DNA from: an uncultured Brevibacillus sp.
GTDB lineage: Bacteria; Bacillota; Bacilli; Brevibacillales; Brevibacillaceae
Assembly (NCBI RefSeq): GCF_947502445.1
Contig: NZ_CANMZW010000021.1
Location: forward strand, 14,823 to 78,822
Direction of reading: 5' to 3'
Length of the DNA stretch: 64,000 nt
A program made the translations under genes and the position numbers. The first letter of the stretch is position 1. Every line of letters starts with the position of its first letter. Shown piece by piece: positions 79 to 31,499 of this stretch. Below the pieces are notes generated by a model. It did no database searches. It was not told where the DNA came from and was given only the letters and a program-made list of their open reading frames with translations.

Positions 79-150
79 GATTCGCTACTTTATCCTTGAA
101 AAGTTAGAATTAATACGTTTCGAAATCGAAAGACGAAGACTCCTTGTGCG

Positions 151-177
151 TTTAGCTATCGGGATCGATAGCGATAA
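151..177 (+). repeat. Putative recombination site S1 (cassette-boundary repeat)
   Basis: TTTAGCTATC-GGGATC-GATAGCGATAA; GCTATC/GATAGC inverted arms around 6 bp; near-identical to copies at 4100 and 5238. Confidence 0.7.
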
Positions 178-202
178 GCGGTTGCTTCGGCAGCCGTTTT
201 AT
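176..202 (+). terminator. Rho-independent terminator directly after site S1
   Basis: AAGCGGTTGC-TTCG-GCAGCCGTTT followed by T run. Confidence 0.75.
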
Positions 203-209
203 TATTTAT

Positions 210-238
210 TCCGCTAACAGCAGCTTCGTTTAAGAAGG
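210..238 (+). repeat. Degenerate putative site S2
   Basis: TTCCGCTAACAGCAGCTTCGTTAAGAAG; GCTAAC left arm, same position after a hairpin as S7 and S9. Confidence 0.4.
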
Positions 239-294
239 AATAAAAACTGAATAGGAAGAATATGTAATTTAGGTGCGGATCAATAGGAGGTTCA

Positions 295-609
295 ATGAAA
301 AAGCCTTTCTTGTTTGTATTTCTTTTAGTTTCAATTTTGGTCGGATGTGGTAGTGAATACGTTATTCTTTCTGGTGAAAGTGATGACTGGAAAGGAGAAT
401 ACTCAGCAAATATAGATGGTAATAGTGAAAATGGGAATTACCTTTTTAGTTTCAAAAGTGGAAACAATGATACTGAATTTAAGAACCTAGAGATTGTAAT
501 TAATGACGGTGAAACCTCCCAAAAGGAAAATAACCATAAAGGAGCAACCGTTAGAATATCAACTTCATGTTCTGGGTGTTCAGTAACAAAAAAAGATAAA
601 ATGGGATGA
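295..609 (+). CDS. Small lipoprotein, hypothetical
   Basis: RBS AGGAGG; basic N-terminus, hydrophobic stretch, lipobox LVGC; AT-rich. Confidence 0.75.
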   Translation: MKKPFLFVFLLVSILVGCGSEYVILSGESDDWKGEYSANIDGNSENGNYLFSFKSGNNDTEFKNLEIVINDGETSQKENNHKGATVRISTSCSGCSVTKKDKMG

Positions 610-663
610 CAAAAATGAAGTAACTTTTTATTTAAAGTGAGTCAAGTGCTATATAAAGGCTTG

Positions 664-690
664 TTCGATTAACGTATTCTCTAGTTCAAC
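664..690 (+). repeat. Putative site S3 just upstream of the recombinase
   Basis: TTCGATTAACGTATTCTCTAGTTCAAC fits TA-N10-TAG spacing of the repeat family. Confidence 0.55.
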
Positions 691-712
691 AAATGATTTC
701 GAAATACGTATT

Positions 713-763
713 AACCCCTCCCAAACATAGTGAAGCTAGTAGTAATTAGCCTTGGGAGGGGTT
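713..763 (+). promoter_or_regulatory. Stem-loop sequestering the recombinase ribosome-binding site
   Basis: Perfect 12-bp inverted repeat AACCCCTCCCAA (713-724) / TTGGGAGGGGTT (752-763); GGGAGG lies in the 3' arm; ATG at 771. Confidence 0.65.
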
Positions 764-770
764 TTGTTTT

Positions 771-1578
771 ATGAAATTGACTGATATCTGGACGTTGTAT
801 GAGGCCGATAAACGAATTCTGGGTTTTAGTCCGCACACTTTAAAAGCGTATACCCTTCAGTTTAAGGTACTGACTCGCGAGATTGGCAACTTAAATATCG
901 GAGAAGTACATTGGACTTGCTGAAAGAATACTTAGCAAAGCAGTCAGACCGGTTAAAGCCGAGCAGCATGGGACATCGTATACGGTTTATACGGTCCCTG
1001 TTTCGGTTTGCATTTGAAGAAGGACATATTATTAAAAATCCTACGCCTAAGCTAAGAGAACCAAAACTAGAAAAGAGGATCCCGAAGTTTTTAATTGAGG
1101 AAGATGTGATTAATCTTAAGATAGCCTGTGATTCCCTACGCGAGCGCGCACTCTTGGAGTTTTTATATTGTACTGGTTGTCGCGTAGGTGAAGTGCATAG
1201 GTTAGATATCGAAGACATCAACTGGGAGAGCTGCTCCGCGATTGTGCATAGTAAAGGCTCTAAGCAACGAGAAGTGTATTTTGCAACCGAATGTAAGGTC
1301 TGGTTAAAGAGATACCTCAAGAGTCGAGAGGATTCTTGCAAAGCCCTTTTTGTGACGGAGTCTTTTCCGCTGTTAAAAAGCTGGCAGCTCGTGGAGAGGT
1401 TGCAGTAAACGTTTATCCTCATCGTTTTCGTCATACGTATGCTTGTCACTTACTTGATAATGGTGCCCCGTTAGATTTTATTCAGGGTATGCTGGGTCAC
1501 GAGAAGGCTTCAACAACACAGATCTACGCGCAATTACGCGGTGAACGTCGCCGGGAATTATATAGGCGGTACTTTTAA
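771..1578 (+). pseudogene. XerD-like tyrosine recombinase/integrase, disrupted
   Basis: ATG 771 MKLTDIWTLYEADKRILGFSPHTLKAY; frameshift near 905-911 into DLLKEY..; catalytic motifs TGCRVGE, KGSK, HRFRH, LGHE, TQIY present; second frame break and apparent loss of about a dozen codons near 1365. Confidence 0.85.
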
Positions 1579-1591
1579 GAGCTGTGGCTCC

Positions 1592-1618
1592 CGCTGAACA
1601 AAGAGCAGTTTAACTTGG
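1592..1618 (+). repeat. Putative site S4 just downstream of the recombinase
   Basis: CGCTGAACAAAGAGCAGTTTAACTTGG; CA-N10-TAA variant of the repeat. Confidence 0.45.
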
Positions 1619-1735
1619 TATCATTTGTACGTAATAGGGACGAGGTGATCGTTTATATGGGGAATACGATAACTTTATGTGACAATTGTGATGAAAAAAT
1701 TGTTGAGTCATTCTCTATGTCAACTAGCACCAAAA

Positions 1736-2626
1736 TCAACCGTCCGACGGTGCGTACTTCCCCACGTCCGGCTCGAATGCCGCTCCGCTCGCCAGGTCCA
1801 GCTCCACATGGGTGGTTCCGCGATCGTCGGTCAGCACAATCATTCGCGACCCGACGACGGGAACGCGGTCGGCGCTGGTGCGCATGTGCGCTGAGACGAC
1901 AAGAGGGGCACTGTCAACGATATAATTTACCTCCACCGTGAACATTGGGAAATTAAAGAGCCAGCTATTAGTAAAGTTCACGGCGGTCAACGTCCCGGGG
2001 CATGACGAACCCTCCACGCGGAGTCGTTCGATGTCCGCCTGACGCCGTCGGGCGTGGGCGATAGAGCCGGGCAACCGCAGGATCGCGATGACGGCCCAGA
2101 GGGCGAAGCTAGCTCCGACGACGGCGCCGAGCTCTGGCGGGATCGTCGGCGATGTCGCTATGGCCTCGAGGTCAAAGGGGCGCGACAGGTCGCTTGTCAG
2201 CGTCCAGAGCAGGAGGATTCCCGCGATTGCTGCGAGTCCTCCTGCCACCGACAGCGTCGCGAACAGGCCGGCCACCCTGGTCTGTCCGAACTGCTCAATC
2301 GATCGCGAGTACACTCCGCCGGTCGTACCGATCGCGCCGAGCAGCAGCAAAACGGCGACGCCCACTGTGATCGGATGACCGAGGAGCATGCTGATCGCCG
2401 GTGTCGGCGCCATTCCGAGCAGTGCGCCGAACGGCACGGAGCCTGTCAGCGCCCACAGTGCAGCGGCTGTGAACAGCCACGGCATCAGCGGAGCCGCGCG
2501 TCCGACGCGATGTCCCGGCAGGAGCATAGTCATCCGTCCGTTCTTATCCGTGGTGGAGAACAGCGGCAGCGTCTCGATATGTTCTTGCTGCCTCTGCTTC
2601 TGTTGACCCTCCGCAGCATCCCTCAT
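1736..2626 (-). CDS. High-GC multi-pass membrane protein, hypothetical
   Basis: Four hydrophobic segments then a soluble tail; RBS GGAGGG 8 nt before ATG at 2626 (shorter than ORF-track start); conspicuously GC-rich versus flanks. Confidence 0.75.
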   Translation of the reverse strand: MRDAAEGQQKQRQQEHIETLPLFSTTDKNGRMTMLLPGHRVGRAAPLMPWLFTAAALWALTGSVPFGALLGMAPTPAISMLLGHPITVGVAVLLLLGAIGTTGGVYSRSIEQFGQTRVAGLFATLSVAGGLAAIAGILLLWTLTSDLSRPFDLEAIATSPTIPPELGAVVGASFALWAVIAILRLPGSIAHARRRQADIERLRVEGSSCPGTLTAVNFTNSWLFNFPMFTVEVNYIVDSAPLVVSAHMRTSADRVPVVGSRMIVLTDDRGTTHVELDLASGAAFEPDVGKYAPSDG

Positions 2627-2964
2627 TGGCATCGCCCTCCAGTTCAACTTCGTATTATCTTTGTACTCAGCCATGCACACCTTCACCCTCAATATTTCTT
2701 ATCTATATTTTACCACTATAAGATTGTCCGCTGTAAATACCCCTAAGTCGACATGCATTTCAATATGCGTGAGCAACGTACGATAGTGAACGAAACAAGC
2801 AGATGATCGCGCAGTAGCTGTTCTTTTCGCATTTTTCGCCGATAGTATCGTTAAACTGAACCTTACCAGTAAGTGACGGCGATAAAAATTGAGAGAAATG
2901 TCTTGAAGATGCCGTCGAACAGTATACGCGTTGTATCTCGTCCAAATGTTTGTCCAAGATCGCT

Positions 2965-3423
2965 TCAACTTTTTCCGATGAGGAGGGAATCCCTGTAGCT
3001 GTTAGCAATGTGACCGAGCGCAAAGCTCGCGGCGAAAATGAAAAAGAGGATAGAATGCAAAACGATAGAGGCAGCGAAGAAATAGAGGCAGGGAAACACG
3101 GCTATCGGAACTGGAATGCCAAGCATCGGGATTAGCAGACGAGCATAGCTTCTATCACTGCGGAGATACATGATCCAGTCTCTATAATAGAAGAGAAGCG
3201 CGGCCAGCATGACGATCAGTGATATCGTTTCATAGCTTCGTTCGGCGCGCATCGAATAAAACAAAGAAACGACCATGATGCCGAGCCTACCAATCGCTTC
3301 ACAAGTATTAAGGAGGAGGTTGATGGTTCGACGGACCGGCGGGCTTGTTGGCGGAAAGCGGACAAAAACGAGATTGGGCAACAGAATCATCAACGGGATA
3401 AGAAGACTGGTCGGATGAAGCAT
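2965..3423 (-). CDS. Hypothetical membrane protein
   Basis: RBS GGAGGT before ATG 3423; several hydrophobic helices. Confidence 0.65.
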   Translation of the reverse strand: MLHPTSLLIPLMILLPNLVFVRFPPTSPPVRRTINLLLNTCEAIGRLGIMVVSLFYSMRAERSYETISLIVMLAALLFYYRDWIMYLRSDRSYARLLIPMLGIPVPIAVFPCLYFFAASIVLHSILFFIFAASFALGHIANSYRDSLLIGKS

Positions 3424-3536
3424 GCGGACACCTCCTTCGTATGATCGTGTCATTATACACAACATTCGGAAGGAACTATCCGTGACTAATGTTGCAGAAA
3501 CACTGCGGAAACCACAAATATGCGAAAGAATTTTGT

Positions 3537-3562
3537 TACGTTAACGGGCAGAATAACTTAGC
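3537..3562 (+). repeat. Putative site S5
   Basis: TACGTTAACGGGCAGAATAACTTAGC, 77 nt upstream of the GNAT gene. Confidence 0.65.
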
Positions 3563-3639
3563 AATTAATTTTTCTTTGATTTGCAACTACCAACATTTGG
3601 AATAAACTCAATGTATCAGTCTGTTGGGAGTGTTGAAAG

Positions 3640-4107
3640 ATGAGTATTAGGCTTTGCCATGTTACAGAAACTAATTTTTGGGATGTCGTTAATCTAAAAT
3701 CTGATCCAGAACAAGAACAAAGGATACAGATATTTGAGCGTTGGGTAGGGTCTAATGCATTTTTTCTAGGAGCTTGTCAAGTTTATGGTTTTACCCCAAG
3801 AACTATATTTGATGACGAAATTTTAATAGGATTTACCTCATTTGGATATAGAAAAGAAAATGAAAGATATGAACTAATTAGTATGATGATAGGTCATCAA
3901 TTCCAAGGCAAAGGTTATGGAGTTCCAATAGTAACGGCGATTGTGAAAGAAATGGCAGATACATATAACTGTAAGGAAATCTTTTTAACTGTTATTCACG
4001 ATAATCAAAAGGCAATTCGTGTTTACGAGAAAGTTGGGTTTACACCGACTGGCGAAATTGAGCAGGGTCATCATCCTGAATTTGTCTATTGTCTGAAATT
4101 AAACTAA
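3640..4107 (+). CDS. GNAT family N-acetyltransferase (spermidine/spermine acetyltransferase-like)
   Basis: Motif A FQGKGYG, DNQKAIRVYEKVGF; AT-rich. Confidence 0.9.
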   Translation: MSIRLCHVTETNFWDVVNLKSDPEQEQRIQIFERWVGSNAFFLGACQVYGFTPRTIFDDEILIGFTSFGYRKENERYELISMMIGHQFQGKGYGVPIVTAIVKEMADTYNCKEIFLTVIHDNQKAIRVYEKVGFTPTGEIEQGHHPEFVYCLKLN

Positions 4108-4125
4108 CGGGTTCGATAGCGTAAC
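4100..4125 (+). repeat. Putative site S6, containing the GNAT stop codon
   Basis: TAAACTAACGGGTTCGATAGCGTAAC; TAA 4105-4107 is the stop codon. Confidence 0.75.
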
Positions 4126-4137
4126 GAAAACAAATAG

Positions 4138-4165
4138 AGGCTGTCGGTGTTCATGCCGGCAGCCT
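4138..4165. terminator. Hairpin between S6 and S7
   Basis: AGGCTGTCGG-N8-CCGGCAGCCT. Confidence 0.6.
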
Positions 4166-4167
4166 AT

Positions 4168-4194
4168 GCTTAACTAACGGGTAGGGTAGTTTGC
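4168..4194 (+). repeat. Putative site S7
   Basis: GCTTAACTAACGGGTAGGGTAGTTTGC. Confidence 0.75.
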
Positions 4195-4219
4195 TTAATA
4201 AGAATCTTTATCTTATTTT

Positions 4220-5149
4220 CTATAGTATGGCCTCTTTGGATAATGAGGCATGTACCCCGTTTACACCATTGACTAGCTGCGTTATACGCAAATCAACAAG
4301 AAGGCTTGACAAATTTAACGCCTCTTTACGCTCAAAATTATACAATTCCTGCATCCAATCAAGCATTCCCTCTAAGGCAATCATCGCTGCTTCATGTACT
4401 TCTTCATGGAATCCAAAGGTAATTCTCTTATGGGGAGTTTCTGCTCTTGGGAACGATAAACTTTGATCAATGACAGTGAAGGTTAGATCGACTAACTGCA
4501 TCGGGCATTCGAGAGCTGGACTGGATACCTCTCCATCACCTTGAACAGCATGACCGTCACCAACTGAAAAAAGACCACCTTCTACTGCGATGGGTAAGTA
4601 TAAAATGCTGCCAGGTACAAGTTCTTTACAATCAATATTCCCTCCACAGAACCTTGGAGGGTAAGTGGAGTGTATCCCTTCTTCATTTGGAGGCATGCCC
4701 ATAATACCCATAAAGGGCTTGAGCCGTATTTTATGCCCTTTGTTACTAATCCCTAAATTGTTGGAAGCATCTAACTCCCACATCAAAACATACTCTGGTC
4801 CCTCGTGAAGACCCAATCTTTTGTTAATAGTATTCGGGAATCCACCTCCGCTACTCCAGCCCCAATTGCCGGTCTTAATATCGTTTATACGAATAGCCAA
4901 GGTTTTTCCTTCTTTTGCTCCATTAATATAGATAGGTCCGATCAAGGCATGGCCGCTGTCTTGTGGATGATCTCTTTCGCAGAATTTCTCTCTTACACCG
5001 TCTAATTGAAATGGACCAGTATTCCACCCGCCGTCAATAGTCTCAAAGCGAACGGTGTCACCCGAATTGATTGATACTATTGGAGTGAACTCCTTTGAAA
5101 AAGAACCGTGCAGAGTTGAACGATCTGGGTGAATAAAAAACTCTGCCAT
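4220..5149 (-). CDS. Acetamidase/formamidase family protein
   Basis: GHALIGPIYINGAKEG, GGNIDCKEL, GGLFSVGDGHAVQGDGEV motifs; RBS GGAGGTG. Confidence 0.9.
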   Translation of the reverse strand: MAEFFIHPDRSTLHGSFSKEFTPIVSINSGDTVRFETIDGGWNTGPFQLDGVREKFCERDHPQDSGHALIGPIYINGAKEGKTLAIRINDIKTGNWGWSSGGGFPNTINKRLGLHEGPEYVLMWELDASNNLGISNKGHKIRLKPFMGIMGMPPNEEGIHSTYPPRFCGGNIDCKELVPGSILYLPIAVEGGLFSVGDGHAVQGDGEVSSPALECPMQLVDLTFTVIDQSLSFPRAETPHKRITFGFHEEVHEAAMIALEGMLDWMQELYNFERKEALNLSSLLVDLRITQLVNGVNGVHASLSKEAIL

Positions 5150-5237
5150 ATAGACACCTCCTAATTTGTATCCTATATTATTATATAACAGGGTATTTAT
5201 GGTAAGCGCACTGAGGTTGTGATTACTTTTCGAAATA

Positions 5238-5265
5238 TTGAGCTAACGGGGATCGATAGCGTAAT
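5238..5265 (+). repeat. Putative site S8
   Basis: TTGAGCTAACGGGGATCGATAGCGTAAT; near-identical to S1 and S6. Confidence 0.75.
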
Positions 5266-5292
5266 AAAACGGGTGCTACGGCATTCGTTTTT
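5266..5292 (+). terminator. Terminator hairpin between S8 and S9
   Basis: AAAACGGGTGC-TACG-GCATTCGTTTT. Confidence 0.7.
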
Positions 5293-5297
5293 GTATG

Positions 5298-5320
5298 TTA
5301 AGTTGACCGGCAGGATAAAT
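5298..5320 (+). repeat. Putative site S9 (variant)
   Basis: TTAAGTTGACCGGCAGGATAAAT; TG-N10-TAA variant. Confidence 0.5.
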
Positions 5321-5401
5321 TTTTTTGCCAACAGGATAAAGGCGGTAGAATCCAATGCGTTGGAAAAATTTTTAAAAAATTGTTCCGGAGGAGAATTCCG
5401 A

Positions 5402-6283
5402 TTGAGCGATTACTATTGGGATAGCAAAATCGATTATTTAAGCAAAACCAGAGGCCTGTATTACAATGATGATTATTTGGAATTCCTTGTTAAAAATGTT
5501 TGGAAGATGAGTCTTTCCCCAGTTCGAATAATTGATTTTGGATGTGGCTACGGATATTTGGGGACTAAGCTCTTACCATTACTTTCAGAAGGATCCACTT
5601 ACACAGGTGTGGATGCTGGATGTAAATTAATTGATCATGCCACGGATGTGTTCAAAGACGCCACTTTTAAGACCGAGTTTATTCAAGGCGATGTTAAACA
5701 ATTGGTTTTTGAACAAAAGTACGATGTTGTAGTTTGTCATGCATTCTTACTGCATGTGGAAAATCCAAAGGAGATTCTACAAAAGATGATAAGTTGTTTA
5801 GTAGATCGAGGAAGAATTATATGCTTTGAACCTCATTGGATCTCAGGCATGGCAAACTATTCTCTCTATGGATACGATTCTTCGGATGTAGTCCAGTTAG
5901 GGTTTCTTCAGAAATTATTTGAAAGAGACGCGCATCGTAGCGGTAAGGATGGGAATATCGGAATAAAAATACCTGTTTATTTAAGCCAATTAGGGGTTAA
6001 GCAAATCGAGTGCAGAGTCAGTGATAAAGTTAATTTCTTAGATCCCAATTCAGAGTTTGAGAAAACGAATGCTCTATTCAGCTCGTTAAAAGAAGATGGC
6101 TTTGGTGCAGACCCTGGGGAACAAGGGCAATTTATCTCGAATTTGATGAACCGCGGCGCAACCTATGAAGAGGCTCAGAATGAGTACAGATTAGAGTCGT
6201 TTCTGTCAAAAGCTTTTAAGAACGACACATTTCTGACCTATGCTGCAAATATGAAGATTACTACAGGGGTTATTGAGCGATGA
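5402..6283 (+). CDS. Class I SAM-dependent methyltransferase
   Basis: IIDFGCGYG motif I; true start probably TTG 5402 after GGAGGAG (ORF-track extension from 5219 runs through sites S8/S9). Confidence 0.85.
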   Translation: MSDYYWDSKIDYLSKTRGLYYNDDYLEFLVKNVWKMSLSPVRIIDFGCGYGYLGTKLLPLLSEGSTYTGVDAGCKLIDHATDVFKDATFKTEFIQGDVKQLVFEQKYDVVVCHAFLLHVENPKEILQKMISCLVDRGRIICFEPHWISGMANYSLYGYDSSDVVQLGFLQKLFERDAHRSGKDGNIGIKIPVYLSQLGVKQIECRVSDKVNFLDPNSEFEKTNALFSSLKEDGFGADPGEQGQFISNLMNRGATYEEAQNEYRLESFLSKAFKNDTFLTYAANMKITTGVIER

Positions 6284-6325
6284 AACCTTATAATTTCCAA
6301 ACTGGAAGCTAACCGTTGATGGCTT

Positions 6326-6357
6326 CATTTCGCTAAACGGGCAGCATTAGTGGAATG
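6326..6357 (+). repeat. Putative site S10
   Basis: CATTTCGCTAA-ACGGGCAGCA-TTAGTGGAATG; 11-bp arms matching at 9/11. Confidence 0.7.
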
Positions 6358-6467
6358 AAGGTTAACTGAGTCTTTAGCCTGAAATTCCGGCTTGCAGTCC
6401 TACTCATAATTAGATTGTTCAATTATTTGAATGGCGGTAAAGTATATGATAATCCCTTTGTAACATA

Positions 6468-7088
6468 TCAAATCTTCCTAGCAACAATGAAATATTCCTG
6501 AGAACTTTTCTTCAAGCAATCCGTTTCTACAATTGAAAAATTCCCTTCCTCAATTGTATCGACTAAATTGTGTATTTTAAATGATCTGATATTTGGTACT
6601 AAACCGACCCTACCTGCAAAGAATAACAAGTTTCTAAGAAATATCTTTTCTCCTACGCATGGTGTTGCAGAAATCAATAATCCTCCTGGCTTCAACAGTT
6701 CATTCATTCTTTGTAGAACGATATGTTCATCTTCCAACAAATGCAGAACATGAAAGACTAGGATGACATCAAATGAGCCTTTCTTATACCTTTCATCAAA
6801 AATGGTCGAATGAGCATAGTTTATATTTGCAATGTTTCGCTCTTTCGCCTTTTTTTCTGCAATTCCTATCATATTAGAAGATATATCAATCGCTTGAATC
6901 CCTTTCACATATTCTGCAATCTCATTTGATATCAATCCAGTCCCACAGCCATAATCCAAAACAATGTCGCTTATTTTGAGATGCGTTTTCGTTCTATTTA
7001 TTATATTGATGTAAGTCTGTTCATCCTTCATCTCTAACTGATCATATTTACTTGCTGTCTTGTCCCAATAACTTTCTGATTTATTCAT
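6468..7088 (-). CDS. Class I SAM-dependent methyltransferase
   Basis: VLDYGCGTG, FDVILVFHVLH, LLKPGG motifs. Confidence 0.9.
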   Translation of the reverse strand: MNKSESYWDKTASKYDQLEMKDEQTYINIINRTKTHLKISDIVLDYGCGTGLISNEIAEYVKGIQAIDISSNMIGIAEKKAKERNIANINYAHSTIFDERYKKGSFDVILVFHVLHLLEDEHIVLQRMNELLKPGGLLISATPCVGEKIFLRNLLFFAGRVGLVPNIRSFKIHNLVDTIEEGNFSIVETDCLKKSSQEYFIVARKI

Positions 7089-7121
7089 TTCAGTTTCACC
7101 TTCTTTTCTAGCACATTCATC

Positions 7122-7820
7122 TTAAATGGATAGAGAATCCTGCCCCGCCCGGTTGAATCCTTTAATGATTAGCCATATAGCCAAAACCAATTGTTGAAAG
7201 GCTATTGGAATGTTCAACGTCATGTAGGTTGCATCCAGACTGATGAAGCGAATCATAAATAATAAGCTTGCCAATATGGACAATGTAGCCCCAATGAGAC
7301 CCAAAAATGACAACCAAAGTGGGACTAATTTTATTTGGTAGAATATGCAATTAAACAAGAACATAGCCAAAACAAACGCCAGTGTTGTTGCCACATGGTT
7401 CACCAAATCACGTCCTTCCCGTAACAATCCACCCAGGGTCTGAAAATACGATGCATTCAGAGTACCAACTTTTGCAAATTCGTGGCTTAATGTCAGTAGC
7501 AACAGAAGAATGATTACACCCATAACAATGAACACATCTGCAATGATGCCGAAAGCAACAGAGCCAAGAGCTAAACCTTTCTTATGCTTACTTAAAATCG
7601 GATACATCAAAATCGGAATACCAACATACGCAACGACCATTAACAATTGGGAAAACGTTCCTATTAGTACCTGATTATCATTTGTAGAAGCCTGGACAAG
7701 GTAGTCTGCTCCATCTATAACAGGAACAACACTAAATATACCTGTAACCAACCCGGCTATTAATAACACCCCAGTAATGACTGCAGACCTTCTACCTGAA
7801 TTTGCACTCTTCCTCAACAT
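7122..7820 (-). CDS. DUF4386-like membrane protein
   Basis: Start MLRKSANSGRRSAVITGVLL after RBS GGAGGC; six or more TM helices; pattern typical of DUF4386. Confidence 0.7.
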   Translation of the reverse strand: MLRKSANSGRRSAVITGVLLIAGLVTGIFSVVPVIDGADYLVQASTNDNQVLIGTFSQLLMVVAYVGIPILMYPILSKHKKGLALGSVAFGIIADVFIVMGVIILLLLLTLSHEFAKVGTLNASYFQTLGGLLREGRDLVNHVATTLAFVLAMFLFNCIFYQIKLVPLWLSFLGLIGATLSILASLLFMIRFISLDATYMTLNIPIAFQQLVLAIWLIIKGFNRAGQDSLSI

Positions 7821-7951
7821 AATTAGCCTCCTTATAATACCTGCCCTTGACGGATGTTTGCGGGACGTGCGAATTAAGAGGTGGTCCAGTGGGTATGTCT
7901 GATTAATCAATACAGCCGTTGCAAATTTCACTCTCCAGTTTTATCCACGTT

Positions 7952-8167
7952 TTATTGCTCATCATATTGAAAGACCTCTTCGATGGACTTTCCGAAAACA
8001 CGCGCGATGCGAAAAGCCAGCTCCAATGAAGGTGAATAATTCCCCTTCTCGATAGCGACAATCGTTTGTCTGGTGACCCCAGCCTTATCTGCTAATTGCT
8101 GCTGGGTCATCTCGTTATGATGAAAGCGAAGATTCCGTATATGATTGCTGATTGCATCCTTTCCCAT
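7952..8167 (-). CDS. Xre/Cro helix-turn-helix transcriptional regulator
   Basis: MTQQQLADKAGVTRQTIVAIEKGNYSPSLELAFRIA. Confidence 0.92.
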   Translation of the reverse strand: MGKDAISNHIRNLRFHHNEMTQQQLADKAGVTRQTIVAIEKGNYSPSLELAFRIARVFGKSIEEVFQYDEQ

Positions 8168-8168
8168 G

Positions 8169-8615
8169 TTAAACTCCTTTTCTATAAAAGTATAATTGAG
8201 CGATACGTCCCAGTAGATCGGATAAGAAACCGAATAAGATCAACACAAGAAATGTTAAGTACGTTGGCAGATCCGTAACGAGCGGAACCATGGAGAATAT
8301 AAACCCGAGGAAAAACACATAAAGCGAAATCCGGTCTGCCTTCAACTCGATGATCTTATCCAACTCATCTTCAAAAGAAGGCTCATCTTCATTCGTAGCG
8401 ATCTTATTGAAGATGACAAACCCGATATGAATGATAACCTTCACTACAATCGACACCGGGAGCAGTACCAGAATGAAGGAACCCCAAAAACTGAAGTCGC
8501 TGGCCGAAGTGATGCTGCCTTCCTCGGCATTGTTTATCGCGTATAAAGTGTAGAGGGTAAAGATGAGTATACTGCTGATGATGGAAACAGAAATTTTTTT
8601 TTCTTGATAGGACAT
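8169..8615 (-). CDS. Small membrane protein (DUF2178-like), in operon with Xre regulator
   Basis: TM helices with EDELDKIIELKA motif; 1 nt from Xre start. Confidence 0.7.
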   Translation of the reverse strand: MSYQEKKISVSIISSILIFTLYTLYAINNAEEGSITSASDFSFWGSFILVLLPVSIVVKVIIHIGFVIFNKIATNEDEPSFEDELDKIIELKADRISLYVFFLGFIFSMVPLVTDLPTYLTFLVLILFGFLSDLLGRIAQLYFYRKGV

Positions 8616-8646
8616 ATTGACCTCCTAATTAAAGTATTATTCACCA

Positions 8647-8710
8647 AATGTAAAATAAACTATACATAATGTATTTAAAACTATTCTTTTTATCAACTTT
8701 ATTTTACATT
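8647..8710. promoter_or_regulatory. 13-bp perfect inverted repeat, likely Xre operator
   Basis: AATGTAAAATAAA (8647-8659) / TTTATTTTACATT (8698-8710) in the promoter of the membrane protein-Xre operon. Confidence 0.55.
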
Positions 8711-8770
8711 AGGCTGTACACTAGGTAGGGCGCTGCACGGTGAATCGTGCTATAAATAACAGGTACGTTG

Positions 8771-8797
8771 CTGAACTAACGGGCTCGACAGTTGAAA
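8771..8797 (+). repeat. Putative site S11
   Basis: CTGAACTAACGGGCTCGACAGTTGAAA, followed by a hairpin. Confidence 0.7.
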
Positions 8798-8812
8798 AAG
8801 ATAGACAAAGAA

Positions 8813-8837
8813 AGAGCCATCCCGTAAGGATGGCTCT
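8813..8837. terminator. Hairpin after S11
   Basis: AGAGCCATCC-CGTAA-GGATGGCTCT. Confidence 0.6.
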
Positions 8838-9014
8838 AAAACTTGCCGTTACTGACAGCGCGGAGAAGTCTACCACAAGTAATGGGTCATTTTGATCTTA
8901 ATGATTCTCATAGCTAACACCTACCGCAATTTACCCAATATTCCCCAATTCGTGATATGATTTTAAAGACAAGCGAATAAGCTTTAATAGAAAGGGATAT
9001 TAGGAGGGCGGCCA

Positions 9015-10883
9015 GTGGAATTCATTAAATTAAATTGTCCCAATTGTCAGGGGGACATTGAATATAAAGAAGGGAAGAAGTTCAAATGCCTGTATTGTGG
9101 AACTGAATTATTGTTGAAGGAGAATAACGTCTATTATGTTGACCAGACGATTAATCATTATTATGGAACCGCCCCTGCACAGGCACGACCAAAATCGAAC
9201 TCAAAGATCCTTCTTTTGCCGCTCATCATCATTTGTGTAGTAGTTGGATATTTCTTTTTGACCAACAATCAAACAGAGTACAGCATCCAAAAAGAGGTAC
9301 CTGTTCGAACGATGCCTGAAAGCGAAGTTCTCCTATTTTTCCTAAAGGATATTTTTGATAAAGGGGCAGCGATGCCAACAGAAGAGGAAATCGCAACGAT
9401 CCGCTATTTGTCTGCTTATCGTGAAAACGATCAGTGGCACATCGGCTACAGCTTTGATGATCCGTTTACGAATGAGCAAACTGAAATCTCCAACTATGTG
9501 ATTACGGATAAGCTATTGAATACACAAAGAATCGAACAAAAAGACTTTGAGGCATTTAGCGGGCTATCAGTGTTAAAACTGATGAATGAATACGACATTT
9601 CAAAAAGTGACCGAGTCAGCTTTCGACACTTACAAGGGTTGAAAAGCTATACAGGCGGCTTTAACGAATCATTTAGTTCGTTTGCACATTATTTTGGCGA
9701 TAAAGCAAAAATCGTAGAACTTTCCACACAAATTCGAAGTAATGAGGAAATGGCTTTATTATTACAGTTCCCGAATCTGCAGTCGCTTGAAATTTCGTAT
9801 GTCGATGAGTCTGTTACCAACTTCCATATCCTGAATCAGCTGTCATCATTAAAATCATTGTCTTTAACAATGATTAATGATTTGAAGTGGCTGTCTTCAT
9901 TAACTGGTTTAACGTCATTAACACTCGATAATAGTGATGCGACAGATTTCAGTTCGTTTTATGCGCTAAGTCAATTGCAAAAGTTAAAGCTTACGTTAGT
10001 GAGAAATTTAAAAACACTTGATTTTGTACAAAATATGCCAAACCTGCAGTCGCTTGATCTTGAAAATCTTGACATTACGAATTTAGAACTCCTGAGAAAT
10101 AAGCCATCATTGACGAAGCTGCGGTTAGCTTCTCTCTATCAAGTCGATTCTTTGGAGGTTGTGAATAGTCTGCCTTCCCTGACCGAATTGTCAATAACGG
10201 GTTTCGGTGGCACTGTATCACCGATCACAGCGCCAAATTTAAAGCAAGCGGAACTAAAAGACTCATTATTGCCAAAGTTAAAGGCGCCCGCTTTAAAATC
10301 GTTAACAGTTTACATACGCGGGTCGAGTGATAATCTGGATGGGGCAGATTTAGTGAAGTTTCCCCAGTTGGAACAGCTTTCAGTGATGGAGCGTGGAGAA
10401 GTTGTAGGCATTCGTTCTTTAAACCGTCTGCCGAATTTGCAAACATTAAATTTGGATGAGACGGCCTTCTACAGTGAAACGAGTGCATTATTCAATTTGC
10501 AGCATGTAAAAACGTTAAATTGCAATAAATGTTCGTTTCAATTAAATAGTGAGAAGCCTTTTGCGAATCATACGCTGGAACATTTAACGTTGAATAACCC
10601 ATCTTTTCGCGTAGGCAATGGAGAGTGGCTGCATGAAACAGATAAGATGATGCCTTACTTTGCTGATTTTACGGCTCTGCGTTCATTTACGATGCAGGAC
10701 ACCTCGCTTGGGTATTTAAGTTTTATGAAAAATTGGCAGCAAATTGAGGAGCTTCATTTGGAAAATAACGCGATTTCCAATATAGAGCCTTTACTGAAGC
10801 TGCCCAATTTAAAGAAGCTATATATTTTGGGGAATCAAGTGCAAAACAAATCTGTTGTTGGCAAGGGAGTTTTGATTTATTGA
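9015..10883 (+). CDS. Leucine-rich-repeat membrane protein with N-terminal zinc ribbon
   Basis: CPNC..CLYC, one TM helix (ILLLPLIIICVVVGYFFL), many LxxLxxLxL repeats; GTG start after GGAGGG. Confidence 0.85.
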   Translation: MEFIKLNCPNCQGDIEYKEGKKFKCLYCGTELLLKENNVYYVDQTINHYYGTAPAQARPKSNSKILLLPLIIICVVVGYFFLTNNQTEYSIQKEVPVRTMPESEVLLFFLKDIFDKGAAMPTEEEIATIRYLSAYRENDQWHIGYSFDDPFTNEQTEISNYVITDKLLNTQRIEQKDFEAFSGLSVLKLMNEYDISKSDRVSFRHLQGLKSYTGGFNESFSSFAHYFGDKAKIVELSTQIRSNEEMALLLQFPNLQSLEISYVDESVTNFHILNQLSSLKSLSLTMINDLKWLSSLTGLTSLTLDNSDATDFSSFYALSQLQKLKLTLVRNLKTLDFVQNMPNLQSLDLENLDITNLELLRNKPSLTKLRLASLYQVDSLEVVNSLPSLTELSITGFGGTVSPITAPNLKQAELKDSLLPKLKAPALKSLTVYIRGSSDNLDGADLVKFPQLEQLSVMERGEVVGIRSLNRLPNLQTLNLDETAFYSETSALFNLQHVKTLNCNKCSFQLNSEKPFANHTLEHLTLNNPSFRVGNGEWLHETDKMMPYFADFTALRSFTMQDTSLGYLSFMKNWQQIEELHLENNAISNIEPLLKLPNLKKLYILGNQVQNKSVVGKGVLIY

Positions 10884-14755: not shown

Positions 14756-14908
14756 TGAGCAGGTTTTCATAGAAAATAAAATTTTAGACTGGCGATGAGG
14801 TATTACGCTCATGGACAGGACCACCGCAAATGAGATTTCCAGATTCGTCGATACTGGAAGCGAGGCTCGGATCAAGAATGTCATTGCAATCGGAAGTTGA
14901 ATCATTTA

Positions 14909-29861: not shown

Positions 29862-31499
29862 TTATTTACTATGAACAACCATCGCTTTAATCTCTTGCTT
29901 CATTTTGGGTATAGACGAAGGAGTCATGCTTAATTCGTCAACACCGAGTGCAACCAGCTCTTTTGCATAGGTAGGATCACCTGCCATTTCACCGCAGACC
30001 CCGACCCATTTGCCGTGTGCGTGCGCATCCTGTACCACTGTGCCAATCAAGCGAAGGATCGCGGGATGTCCAGGATTGTACAGATAGCCTACCTTTTGAT
30101 TCATGCGGTCAGCCGCAAAGGTATACTGGATCAAGTCATTGGAGCCGATGCTGAAAAAGTCTACATGTGGCGCCAGTTGATCGACAATCAGCGCAGCAGA
30201 GGGGACTTCAATCATAATCCCTGTCTCGATTTGTTCAGCGAAAGAAGATTGTCTGGCTGCTAGCTGCTCTTTGGCCAGCTCCCATAACGCTTTTGCCTCC
30301 AAAAGCTCCTCGACAGTCGCGATCATCGGGAACATGACTTTTACATTCCCGAAAAGGGAGGCGCGAAGGATTGCTCGCAGCTGCGTCAAAAACATCTCTT
30401 TTTCAGCAAGACACAAGCGGATGGCTCGAAACCCGAGAAACGGATTCTCTTCAGGCTCCATCTGCAGGTACGGTAATTGTTTGTCTCCTCCAATGTCCAT
30501 GGTGCGAATAATGACTGGGCGTCCCGCCATTTCACGGGCAACTGCGGCGTATGCTTCAAATTGCTCGTCCTCACTCGGCATTTGTTCCCGCTCGAGAAAT
30601 AAAAACTCAGATCGAAATAGGCCAATCCCGTCTCCGCCGTTTGCAAGTACGGCCTTGCAATCCTCTGGAGTTCCGATATTGCCCGCCACTTCAATCAACT
30701 TGCCGTCTGACGTGTGAGCAGGTGCGTGTGCAGCATCTCGCAGGACTGCTAGTTCTTCTACATATTCCCGTTGCAGGCGCTGGTACCTATTGATTTGCTC
30801 GGCAGCTGGATTGAGCTGCAGCTCTCCCGTATTTCCATTCAGGGCAAGCGTCGTCTCATTTGTGATGTTATCTAAAATGCTGCCACATCCCACAACAGCG
30901 GGGATTTGCAGCGTGCGTGCCAAAATGGCAGAGTGACTGGTGGTGCCGCCAATCTCTGTAACAATCCCTTTGACCCATTCCGGTTTCAATCGCGCTGTTT
31001 GAGAAGGGGTCAAGTCATGTGTAACCAGGATGACGGGGCGCTCGATCTGATCTAGCGAAGAATCTGCGATGCCTAGCATTTTTCGCGCAATTTTATCTCG
31101 CAGGTCTTTGAAGTCAGCTGCCCGTTCCCGCAAATACTCGTCATCCAGTTGTTCAAAAAATGCGATATGTCCTGAAAAGACGTGATAAGCTGCCCAGGCT
31201 GCATTCTTGTTTTCGCCTTTGATTTCCTTGTCCATCTCTTGAACGAGGGTTGGATCATCCAAAATCATGAGATGGGAGTCGAAGATCGCGCACTCATGCT
31301 CACCTATACGCTGCCTTACAGTCTCCCGCGTGACAGCGATTTCAATTTTCACTTGCTCAAGAACCTCACAAAGCTTTTGTTGTTCTTGATCTGCCTGGTC
31401 GGCAGCAATCGTCTCGCTGGGAATAACCAGTTCTGCCTCTTTCAGTACAAAAACACGTTCTGCTGCATAACCGGGTGAGGCTGCAATTCCTTTTATCAT
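29862..31499 (-). CDS. ptsI: Phosphoenolpyruvate-protein phosphotransferase (PTS enzyme I)
   Basis: MIKGIAASPG start after GGAGGG; GGTTSHSAIL (active His), GIGLFRSEF, ENPFLGFRAIR, FFSIGSNDL, GVCGEMAG. Confidence 0.93.
   Translation of the reverse strand: MIKGIAASPGYAAERVFVLKEAELVIPSETIAADQADQEQQKLCEVLEQVKIEIAVTRETVRQRIGEHECAIFDSHLMILDDPTLVQEMDKEIKGENKNAAWAAYHVFSGHIAFFEQLDDEYLRERAADFKDLRDKIARKMLGIADSSLDQIERPVILVTHDLTPSQTARLKPEWVKGIVTEIGGTTSHSAILARTLQIPAVVGCGSILDNITNETTLALNGNTGELQLNPAAEQINRYQRLQREYVEELAVLRDAAHAPAHTSDGKLIEVAGNIGTPEDCKAVLANGGDGIGLFRSEFLFLEREQMPSEDEQFEAYAAVAREMAGRPVIIRTMDIGGDKQLPYLQMEPEENPFLGFRAIRLCLAEKEMFLTQLRAILRASLFGNVKVMFPMIATVEELLEAKALWELAKEQLAARQSSFAEQIETGIMIEVPSAALIVDQLAPHVDFFSIGSNDLIQYTFAADRMNQKVGYLYNPGHPAILRLIGTVVQDAHAHGKWVGVCGEMAGDPTYAKELVALGVDELSMTPSSIPKMKQEIKAMVVHSK

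Follow-up and report, generated by a model that had tools for sequence, protein, structure and literature searches.

We analyse here the first 8.9 kb of a 64,000-nucleotide stretch of DNA from an uncultured Brevibacillus sp. (positions 14,823 to 78,822 of contig NZ_CANMZW010000021.1, RefSeq assembly GCF_947502445.1; this whole stretch is called the window), where short unrelated genes, the remains of a Xer-like tyrosine recombinase gene among them, are separated by copies of a short palindromic site. A preliminary description of this DNA had put these copies and the recombinase forward as a system for the capture and shuffling of gene cassettes, with its own site family and a tyrosine recombinase other than IntI, and this proposal is supported by the sequence comparisons given below, which are its only support. 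These comparisons make it likely that the region from 1 to 8.9 kb belongs to an array of cassettes whose site-specific recombination system occurs widely in Paenibacillaceae.

The array in the window

The array starts upstream of base 1, as the open reading frame (ORF) that ends at 77 already has a unit behind it, extends to about 8870 and holds about eight gene modules (Table 1). The copies of the palindrome that had been listed are all present, every one on the + strand and either between ORFs or at ORF ends. As had also been described, the units between them differ in orientation and in guanine-plus-cytosine (GC) content, the latter being 57% at 2-3 kb versus about 40% around it, with two modules reversed, namely the acetamidase gene and the four-gene block at 6468-8615. 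It is noted that a homologue with 64% identity to the window acetamidase is a forward cassette in another locus (L033, 857-1789). The gene content reported before is recovered by Pfam, which finds among the window proteins GNAT, acetamidase/formamidase, two methyltransferases, DUF4386 and an Xre-type helix-turn-helix (HTH) domain.

As deduced from relatives, the core site has 28-29 bp and consists of two 11-bp inverted arms, ATTGAACTAAC and GATAGTTCAAT, with a spacer of 6-7 nt between them. The spacer comes in two flavours, GGGNAAC or GGGTAC (flavour A) and GGGCAG (flavour B), and around GGGCAG or GGGNAAC the arms occupy positions -7 to +3 and +10 to +20 (B) or +11 to +21 (A). This is the geometry of dif-type sites (a 28-bp site, 11-bp arms and a centre of 6-8 nt), and the cores are of the CTAAC/GTTAG type, similar to those of attC. 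Usually an A site, a GC-rich hairpin and a B site follow each other in this order as a composite unit of 85-100 bp, with 56-74 nt from A to B and with a same-strand ORF directly upstream. We collected 88 distinct units of this kind, and they have the layout of attC, that is, two simple sites around a variable centre, 57-141 bp in length, after an ORF; the attC anatomy used for this comparison is that of the 59-base-element literature. The sites had been called much shorter than attC, which has to be revised, as they are the halves of these composite units. Besides the attC-sized units of two sites, the preliminary description had also missed the two spacer flavours, the recombinase gene as a module and the decay of the copy in the window.

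The sites were scored, in bits, with a 34-nt weight matrix trained on 87 units, all from genomes outside the window, the position of a score being the coordinate of the T in TAACGGG. In the window the sites are not scattered: on the + strand, six sites of at least 10 bits are found in the first 9 kb, all of them at 3.5-8.8 kb in the array, and none in the other 55 kb, with 0.5 per strand per 64 kb expected from shuffles. The exact sequence CTAACGGG occurs five times in the window versus 1.0 expected, and four of the five lie on the + strand within 4104-8783. The matrix matches on the minus strand are mirror scores of the palindromic A sites, except for one at 31127, which is inside a 585-aa ORF and was counted as chance. 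Not every copy listed before reaches this strength, those at 157 and 6335 being weak and those at 664, 1592 and 210 not scoring with the general matrix. At 664 and 1592 one finds mutated versions of the two variants that flank the recombinase gene in all its homologues, at exactly the same positions, while the copy at 210 is recognized only by its B position after an A site and a hairpin. Four composite units are present in the window (150-236, 4098-4196, 5237-5325 and 8770-8870).

The recombinase ORFs of the window (771-923, 911-1408 and 1336-1578) are pieces of one gene. Compared with the intact gene of a metagenomic relative (L001), to which the nucleotide identity is 91.5%, it has lost one nucleotide near 907 and 34 nucleotides near 1368. 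The recombinase-flanking sites of the window are mutated, too, which agrees with the state of the gene, and we read the whole as an old, partly eroded array.

Table 1. Features of the array in the window, with matrix scores in bits and the scored position in brackets
Feature	Position	Strand	Remark
A-type core site, weak variant GCTATCGGGATCGATAGCGATAA	150-178	+	after ORF ending at 77; 6.3 bits (157)
GC-rich hairpin, then T run, middle of unit 1	176-199	+	terminator-like site in scan
Weak B-position site of unit 1, CCGCTAACAGCAG/CTTCGTTTAAG	208-236	+	position only; no matrix score
Module with 104-aa ORF, lipoprotein-type signal sequence	295-609	+	no Pfam match
Recombinase-upstream A-type variant, degenerate: GATTAACGTATTCTCTAGTTCAAC versus family consensus CTAACGGGnAACGCTAGTTCAAT	663-691	+	position as in 47 homologous loci; 0.8 bits with the general matrix
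Leader hairpin, CCCCTCCCAA paired with TTGGGAGGGG, the ribosome-binding site just in front of the recombinase ATG	715-761	+	conserved in all loci
Xer-like tyrosine recombinase pseudogene (intact form 280 aa)	771-1578	+	DNA alignment to L001
Small hairpin and degenerate recombinase-downstream B-type variant, CTGAAC-AAAGAGCAG versus family consensus TTCAACTAAAGGGCAG	1581-1620	+	versus L001, one base lost and one G>A
Atypical module, two membrane-protein ORFs (1736-2692, 2965-3465), part with 57% GC	1621-3534	-	no A site or hairpin at end
B site TTACGTTAACGGGCAGAATAACTTAGC	3535-3563	+	35.4 bits (3542)
GNAT acetyltransferase module	3640-4107	+	stop codon is the TAA of the A site
A site AAACTAACGGGTTCGATAGCGTAAC	4098-4126	+	21.0 bits (4105); exact pattern match
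GC-rich hairpin AGGCTGTCGG...CCGGCAGCCT, middle of unit 2	4138-4165	+	same class as the 130 unit hairpins
B site CTTAACTAACGGGTAGGGTAGTTTGCTTAAT	4168-4196	+	20.4 bits (4175)
Acetamidase/formamidase module, reversed	4220-5149	-	Pfam
A site GAGCTAACGGGGATCGATAGCGTAAT	5237-5266	+	33.3 bits (5244)
Hairpin, then T run, middle of unit 3	5266-5291	+	terminator-like site in scan
B site variant AAGTTGACCGGCAGGATAAATTT	5297-5325	+	10.7 bits (5304)
S-adenosylmethionine-dependent methyltransferase module	5402-6283	+	probable TTG start at 5402 after GGAGGAG
Compact junction without hairpin: A-like remnant GGAAGCTAACCGTTGATGGCTTC, then B-type site with one extra base CGCTAAACGGGCAGCATTAGTGG	6303-6355	+	7.1 bits (6335)
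Multi-gene module: methyltransferase, DUF4386 membrane protein, Xre-type HTH regulator, 148-aa membrane protein	6468-8615	-	
A site GAACTAACGGGCTCGACAGTTGAAAAA	8770-8798	+	17.2 bits (8777)
Hairpin AGAGCCATCC...GGATGGCTCT, middle of unit 4	8813-8837	+	
Variant B-position site GCCGTTACTGACAG/CGCGGAGAA	8842-8870	+	last recognisable site of the array in the window

A few further features of the window are noted. The stretch at 1650-2700, with 57% GC in an array of about 40% GC and a 318-aa membrane ORF on the minus strand without a Pfam match, looks like foreign DNA that has no canonical bounding sites. The last site of the array belongs to a variant, GCCGTTACNGACAG followed by the conserved CGCGGAGAA, that is present in four arrays, at 8845-8867 of the window, at 8902-8924 of L004 (minus strand), at 9405 of L013 and at 151 of L021; in L021 it takes the B position after an A site and a hairpin, in L013 it lies within the array, and in L004 it is inverted behind a reversed GNAT gene. 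No site is found beyond 8870 in the window, where the array is followed by the gene of a 622-aa leucine-rich-repeat protein (9015-10883) in DNA that keeps a GC content of 39-40% up to about 11 kb. An Rfam scan of the whole window at gathering thresholds gave no match, and there are no tRNA genes.

Recombinase, sites and junctions in related genomes

The intact homologues of the recombinase have 280 aa, are 70-88% identical across many Paenibacillus and Cohnella, and conserve the catalytic R-K-H-R-H-Y residues. A scan with one genome per species located the gene at 397 places; a genome often has several of them, and many lie at contig ends. The best 80 of the 397 are nearly all in Paenibacillus, the rest of these 80 being in Cohnella, two Brevibacillus, Candidatus Pristimantibacillus and two 'Bacillus sp.' records. 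Among the NCBIfam models, XerC gives 197 bits (cut-off 335), XerD 195 bits (cut-off 330) and archaeal XerA 189-208 bits (cut-off 220), and the closest solved structures are those of a XerC-like protein and of XerD (PDB 4a8e, 1a0p). On these scores the protein is Xer-like and belongs to no named family. The two models of integron integrases, TIGR02249 and NF011946, give 93 and 55 bits (cut-offs 265 and 435), and the TIGR02249 match is split, positions 17-187 and (P0103) 205-271 of the query being matched to 12-181 and 238-304 of the profile, with about 40 profile positions unmatched. The match is thus interrupted around the part where IntI has its specific domain. With this split and with both scores far below the cut-offs, the recombinase is no IntI, and the earlier remark that it has no IntI-specific insertion is borne out.

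More distant relatives of the recombinase occur in other settings. A clade with 55% identity lies among phage tail genes (tail tube, CBM96, F5/8 type C) on metagenomic contigs (L084, 10001-10843; also L085 and L086), with CTAACGGGG about 170 nt upstream of the start and with no array present. Homologues with 52-55% identity are carried by large plasmids of Peribacillus and Bacillus mycoides. On one of them, pSHB26 of Peribacillus simplex (L087), two recombinase genes stand in tandem (3873-4724 and 6001-6840), together with sites at 6878, 8724 and 8837 (13-24 bits), and these three good sites indicate that the site family extends beyond Paenibacillaceae.

The sites are linked to the recombinase both in place and in orientation. 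In the 1.24 Mb around 80 homologues, TAACGGG is found 379 times on the recombinase strand versus 59 times on the other. Moreover, the bracketing of the recombinase gene by two sites, which had been seen in the window, is the same in 47 loci, where the sites are conserved variants. On the 5' side there is an A-type site with the right arm GCTAGTTCAAT, then a conserved hairpin CCTCCC/GGGAGG before the ATG; on the 3' side the gene is followed by a variable hairpin and a special B-type site, of which TTCAACTAAAGGGCAG is the consensus. In the leader hairpin the outer stem of six pairs is kept in 33 sequences, with one pair being CG in 18 and UA in 10, and the RNAalifold consensus of the leader contains only this stem between the Shine-Dalgarno and anti-Shine-Dalgarno sequences, the inner stem being unaligned. 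By hiding the ribosome-binding site, the hairpin probably blocks the translation of read-through transcripts, a device that is known from insertion sequences. Located in the 50 nt before the ATG in 47 loci, the hairpin has a conserved GAAGCAAACTAGATTTAATAGC in its loop and may contain the recombinase gene's own promoter.

In L046 the upstream variant replaces the B site of the preceding cassette, which implies that the array includes the recombinase gene as one of its modules, in the place of a hairpin module. This module would consist of the right half of the A-type site, the hairpin that hides the ribosome-binding site, the gene, the second hairpin and the left half of the special B-type site, CTAAAGGGCAG; spanning from an A right half to a B left half, it sits inside arrays and is co-oriented with the cassettes. 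Where 9 kb or more flank the gene on each side (20 loci), sites are present on both sides in 10 loci, upstream only in seven, downstream only in one and nowhere in two. In an integron, by contrast, intI is divergent from the array and stands beside attI and a common promoter. By analogy with attI, we speculate that the special site 3' of the recombinase gene might be a preferred entry point.

The matrix search gave 657 sites in 81 loci. The intervals from B to A are gene-sized (median 689 bp; 172 of 217 within 250-1500 bp), those from A to B measure 45-130 bp in 132 of 216 cases, and A and B alternate in about three quarters of the intervals. In 330 intervals the longest ORF has the orientation of the sites, versus 57 intervals with the opposite one. 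With the unit pattern as the only criterion, an independent sample of 100 loci, 97 of them metagenomic and 3 'viral', gave 581 same-strand sites in 565 kb, that is, 5.8 sites per 5.6 kb. The cargo is extremely diverse: 487 ORFs between sites, with a median of 168 aa, fall into 399 clusters, and the only two recurring clusters are the recombinase (42 members) and one IS110 transposase (9 members). Among 148 cargo representatives, Pfam finds GNAT, alpha/beta hydrolases, NUDIX, glyoxalase/bleomycin-resistance, GyrI-like, MerR and methyltransferase families, SUKH and Imm11 immunity proteins, and three cases of Cass2, a family whose name is 'integron-associated effector binding protein'.

Junctions are seen at the ends of shared segments. 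A segment of 1145 bp is 97% identical between L032 (P. radicibacter) and L045 (P. pabuli); it starts exactly at the B-site CTAACGGGCAG and ends in the spacer of an A site, the outer sequences being unrelated on both sides. L018 and L054 share, at 98.9% identity, a small gene with its A site, hairpin and left part of B, up to CGGGCAG, and similarly sharp junctions are seen between L054 and L064. The preliminary description had proposed to test whether breakpoints fall in the site cores, and about half of them do. For segments shared at 85% identity or more, and counting from -15 to +30 nt of a site, 25 of the 52 breakpoints on the left lie at sites, 18 of these at B, as do 33 of the 63 on the right, 22 of these at A, versus about 7% expected by chance. 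With breakpoints at both A and B, both flavours are junctions and the hairpin segment can be exchanged apart from the gene.

Mobile elements of two kinds were also met in the arrays. Six arrays, from five genomes, carry an IS110-family element with a 401-aa DEDD transposase that is inserted in the left arm of B sites, always between CTA and ACGGGCAG (L064 7132-8806, with the transposase at 7339-8544 on the minus strand; L006 14392-16072; L046 13982-15581; L035 57-1507 and 17970-19634; L031 1-998). In A-type sites the left arm is interrupted (ATTAAGC / TAACGGG) by a second IS110-like element, which is present in L043 (12954-14737, where the transposase frame is broken), L020 (12114-13903), L030 (5895-7677), L007 (12037-13834) and L029 (691-2411), and its right end lies directly upstream of the recombinase gene in L001, L052 and L065. 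In addition, Tn7-like tnsA-tnsB-tnsC-tniQ genes are present less than 10 kb from the recombinase in 4 of about 80 loci (L004 174-3901 and 11288-12259; L007 2222-7190; L017 2195-7273; L074 2916-7194), and a TniB-like ATPase gene stands beside it in L011, L015 and L028. Like class 1 and class 2 integrons, some arrays may be carried by Tn7-like transposons or lie next to them.

Proposed exchange and its alternatives

From these comparisons we infer that the recombinase cuts these sites, that its substrate is double-stranded and that like sites are exchanged with like. In the pathway that we propose, each gene module has a B site in front and an A site behind, with a hairpin module between A and the next B. 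The 280-aa recombinase would bind the double-stranded arms as a dimer and would exchange strands in the spacer as Xer-type enzymes do, with exchange occurring between like spacers, A with A and B with B. Exchange between two direct A sites, or two direct B sites, would release a circle in which a gene, an A site, a hairpin and a B site are each present once, and this circle could re-enter any array at a matching site, the alternation being kept. In this way genes would be shuffled, hairpins swapped and cassettes moved between genomes. The double-stranded exchange is suggested because the attC-reading domain of IntI is absent and because the arms fit a consensus and show no covariation, which is the behaviour expected of half-sites for a protein; the like-with-like rule is suggested because the alternation of A and B is regular and is best explained that way. 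If gene modules inserted at any site, the hairpins would not stay interleaved.

The unit hairpins, of which 130 are distinct, have a median length of 40 nt, a median energy of -16.2 kcal/mol and a median z of -3.9 versus shuffles; their GC content is 53% versus 41% in the background, and their 3' tail is T-rich. Some of them pass a strict terminator scan, and for this part the word terminator is retained in the sense of a likeness. The hairpins may insulate the cassettes as terminators, may be an architectural part of the site, or both. A promoter of its own for each cassette was considered and dropped, since a simple promoter scan (L033 and the window) was no richer than in shuffles.

Several observations weigh against the proposed pathway. 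The alternation is broken in about a quarter of the intervals (71 A-A and 65 B-B of 569), and the like-with-like rule has the alternation as its one line of evidence. Only 3 of the 100 pattern-picked loci have a recombinase gene within the stored flanks, which means that the arrays are very long or are often without their own enzyme. The copy in the window is a dead pseudogene, so that the window array could move only by means of an intact recombinase elsewhere in the genome, which would use the sites at 3542, 4105, 4175, 5244 and 8777. Moreover, the strict terminator scan shows no excess in L033 and the window (12 versus 8.1 and 9 versus 8.0 in shuffles), and the covariation test mentioned above, the results of which are given below, used fixed offsets although the A spacers vary by one base.

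An alternative that we regard as unlikely is that the system acts in the manner of an integron, one strand of the A-hairpin-B unit folding so that the outer arms serve as the R box and the inner arms as the L box, with a single strand exchanged at the B end and the junction resolved by replication. The layout and length of the units, their place after an ORF with the same polarity, the CTAAC...GTTAG-like cores and the very stable central hairpins of differing sequence are all consistent with such folding, and the heterology of the A and B spacers would be irrelevant to a one-strand exchange. It is difficult, however, to reconcile with the recombinase, in which the low-scoring and split TIGR02249 match reflects the missing IntI-specific domain, the part of IntI that reads the extrahelical bases of the folded attC (PMC4792948). 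Nor is covariation above shuffles seen between A-right and B-left or between A-left and B-right, and it is likewise absent for A-left/A-right and B-left/B-right, in a test of low power because of its fixed offsets and near-consensus arms; the idea that the unit is selected to fold like attC was dropped because of this result. In addition, a crossover confined to the R' end, with each gene keeping its own attC, does not predict that the A site is a junction, as it is in the L032/L045 pair and for 22 of the 33 right breakpoints at sites.

Decidedly improbable, in our view, is that the host XerC/XerD homologues move the modules, as with pdif, or that a host Xer protein and the 280-aa protein act as a hybrid pair. 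A pair of this kind is documented for Tn6022, where a XerC-like protein borne on the mobile element acts with host XerD at a hybrid site (PMC11014353), and most array segments here have no recombinase gene nearby. XerC, XerD and XerA give the best family and structure matches of the recombinase and share its catalytic residues; the sites have dif-type geometry with 11-bp arms and a spacer of 6-7 nt; and here, as in the pdif modules of Acinetobacter plasmids and the Tn6022 system, discrete gene modules lie between Xer-type sites of 28 bp (11-bp arms, 6-nt centre) and one module turns up in different contexts. By contrast, the arms here are inverted copies of one sequence and not a C/D pair, and this symmetry suggests a single protein species; together with the dedicated recombinase it also speaks against sites that derive from the host dif. 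The sites here are all direct, whereas pdif sites alternate in orientation, and there is a dedicated recombinase, with its own flanking variants and co-oriented with the arrays, besides the two spacer flavours, the interleaved hairpins and the chromosomal arrays of up to tens of cassettes. The recombinase, too, differs from the host proteins: it is below all the equivalog cut-offs, occurs in several copies in variable regions, is about 15 residues shorter than XerD, and goes with hundreds of sites and not with one dif.

It is hardly more credible, and if anything a shade less so, that the repeats are intergenic or terminator-linked protein-binding sites resembling repetitive extragenic palindromes (REP) or bacterial interspersed mosaic elements (BIME), the recombinase being incidental among them. 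The repeats are indeed palindromic, intergenic and beside terminator-like hairpins, and most site-rich segments have no recombinase. Against this stand the homology breakpoints between species, which are sharp to the base at the sites, the strict orientation bias relative to the recombinase and the dedicated variants beside every recombinase gene, as well as the tight clustering (none on that strand in the other 55 kb of the 64 kb tested), the extreme turnover of the cargo and a geometry that is that of the core sites of tyrosine recombinases. Finally, an ordinary integron of IntI and attC in a Firmicute, which the look of the cassette array, the attC-like units and the integron-like cargo including Cass2 might bring to mind, is barely conceivable with such integrase scores, with a gene that is co-oriented and embedded in place of divergent beside attI, and with junctions at both simple sites.

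Relation to known systems and meaning

The likeness of the proposed system to integrons is nevertheless extensive. Both have long arrays of mostly single, small, co-oriented and extremely diverse genes; both have an element after each gene, here of 85-100 bp, with two direct simple sites around a variable palindromic centre; the cores are of the same type, and the tyrosine recombinases are of the Xer-related branch. The palette of the cargo is also shared, with GNAT, glyoxalase, NUDIX, Cass2 and immunity proteins. The IS1111-attC elements target the attC sites of integrons, and the site-targeting IS110-family elements found here are parallel to them, as is the occasional carriage beside Tn7-like transposition genes. 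By contrast, the recombinase here has no IntI-specific domain, its gene is a co-oriented module inside the array with arrays to its left and right, and neither an attI nor a common promoter can be made out. Junctions lie at both simple sites, the hairpin segment can be exchanged by itself, the central hairpin often resembles a terminator, and the low-power covariation test gives no sign of selection for long-range pairing. The system cannot be counted among the integrons, as it differs from them in the family of its integrase, in where the integrase gene lies and in not being confined to a single crossover point. The host differs as well, belonging to the Bacillota, while in IntegronFinder surveys the Firmicutes are without or almost without integrons, with one complete integron and a few clusters of attC sites lacking integron integrases (CALINs) (PMC9024848, PMC4889954).

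Another tyrosine recombinase of Bacillus, IntXO of the Bacillus anthracis plasmid pXO1, acts on a short perfect palindrome, PSL, with a 7-nt centre, but PSL is a single site that serves plasmid maintenance, with no cassettes (PMC5567495). As a characterised relative of the recombinase described here IntXO was rejected, the identity being 22% and the sequence of its site unrelated.

No description of the system was found in the literature searched, including a search for the site sequence, and the system is apparently undescribed; as most subscription journals lay outside the search, this is no proof. A cassette array built by a recombinase is of a known kind, and what appears to be new is that such arrays in Paenibacillus have their own non-IntI recombinase and their own site family. 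Going one step further, we lean, without great confidence, to the view that Paenibacillaceae have a functional integron counterpart of their own, present on plasmids in some Bacillaceae as well and with an origin independent of IntI, in which a Xer-like recombinase without the attC-reading domain acts on two double-stranded core sites around a hairpin and in which the integrase gene is a mobile cassette.

For practical use, the system offers a new pair of recombinase and site with two non-equivalent spacer flavours, and the site matrix together with the recombinase clade provides annotation rules for finding such arrays. These would give access to a large unexplored pool of small accessory genes of Paenibacillus, with acetyltransferases, hydrolases, immunity proteins and regulators among them.

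If the view of an integron counterpart is true, it bears on two questions. The first is the origin of integrons, for which a stepwise rise of the attC-like double sites and of the IntI-specific domain has been considered (PMC4792948). Here double sites exist without the IntI-specific domain, and the arrays would be a living model of the stage proposed for that origin, with two simple sites and no I2. The second is the near-absence of classical integrons from Bacillota. Firmicutes make up more than one fifth of the sequenced genomes and yet are essentially without integrons, for a reason that has been called unclear (PMC9024848, PMC4889954). That a large soil genus has a widespread system of cassettes, with a recombinase and sites of its own, would help to explain this, as it suggests that in Firmicutes the role of the integron is filled by a different machine.

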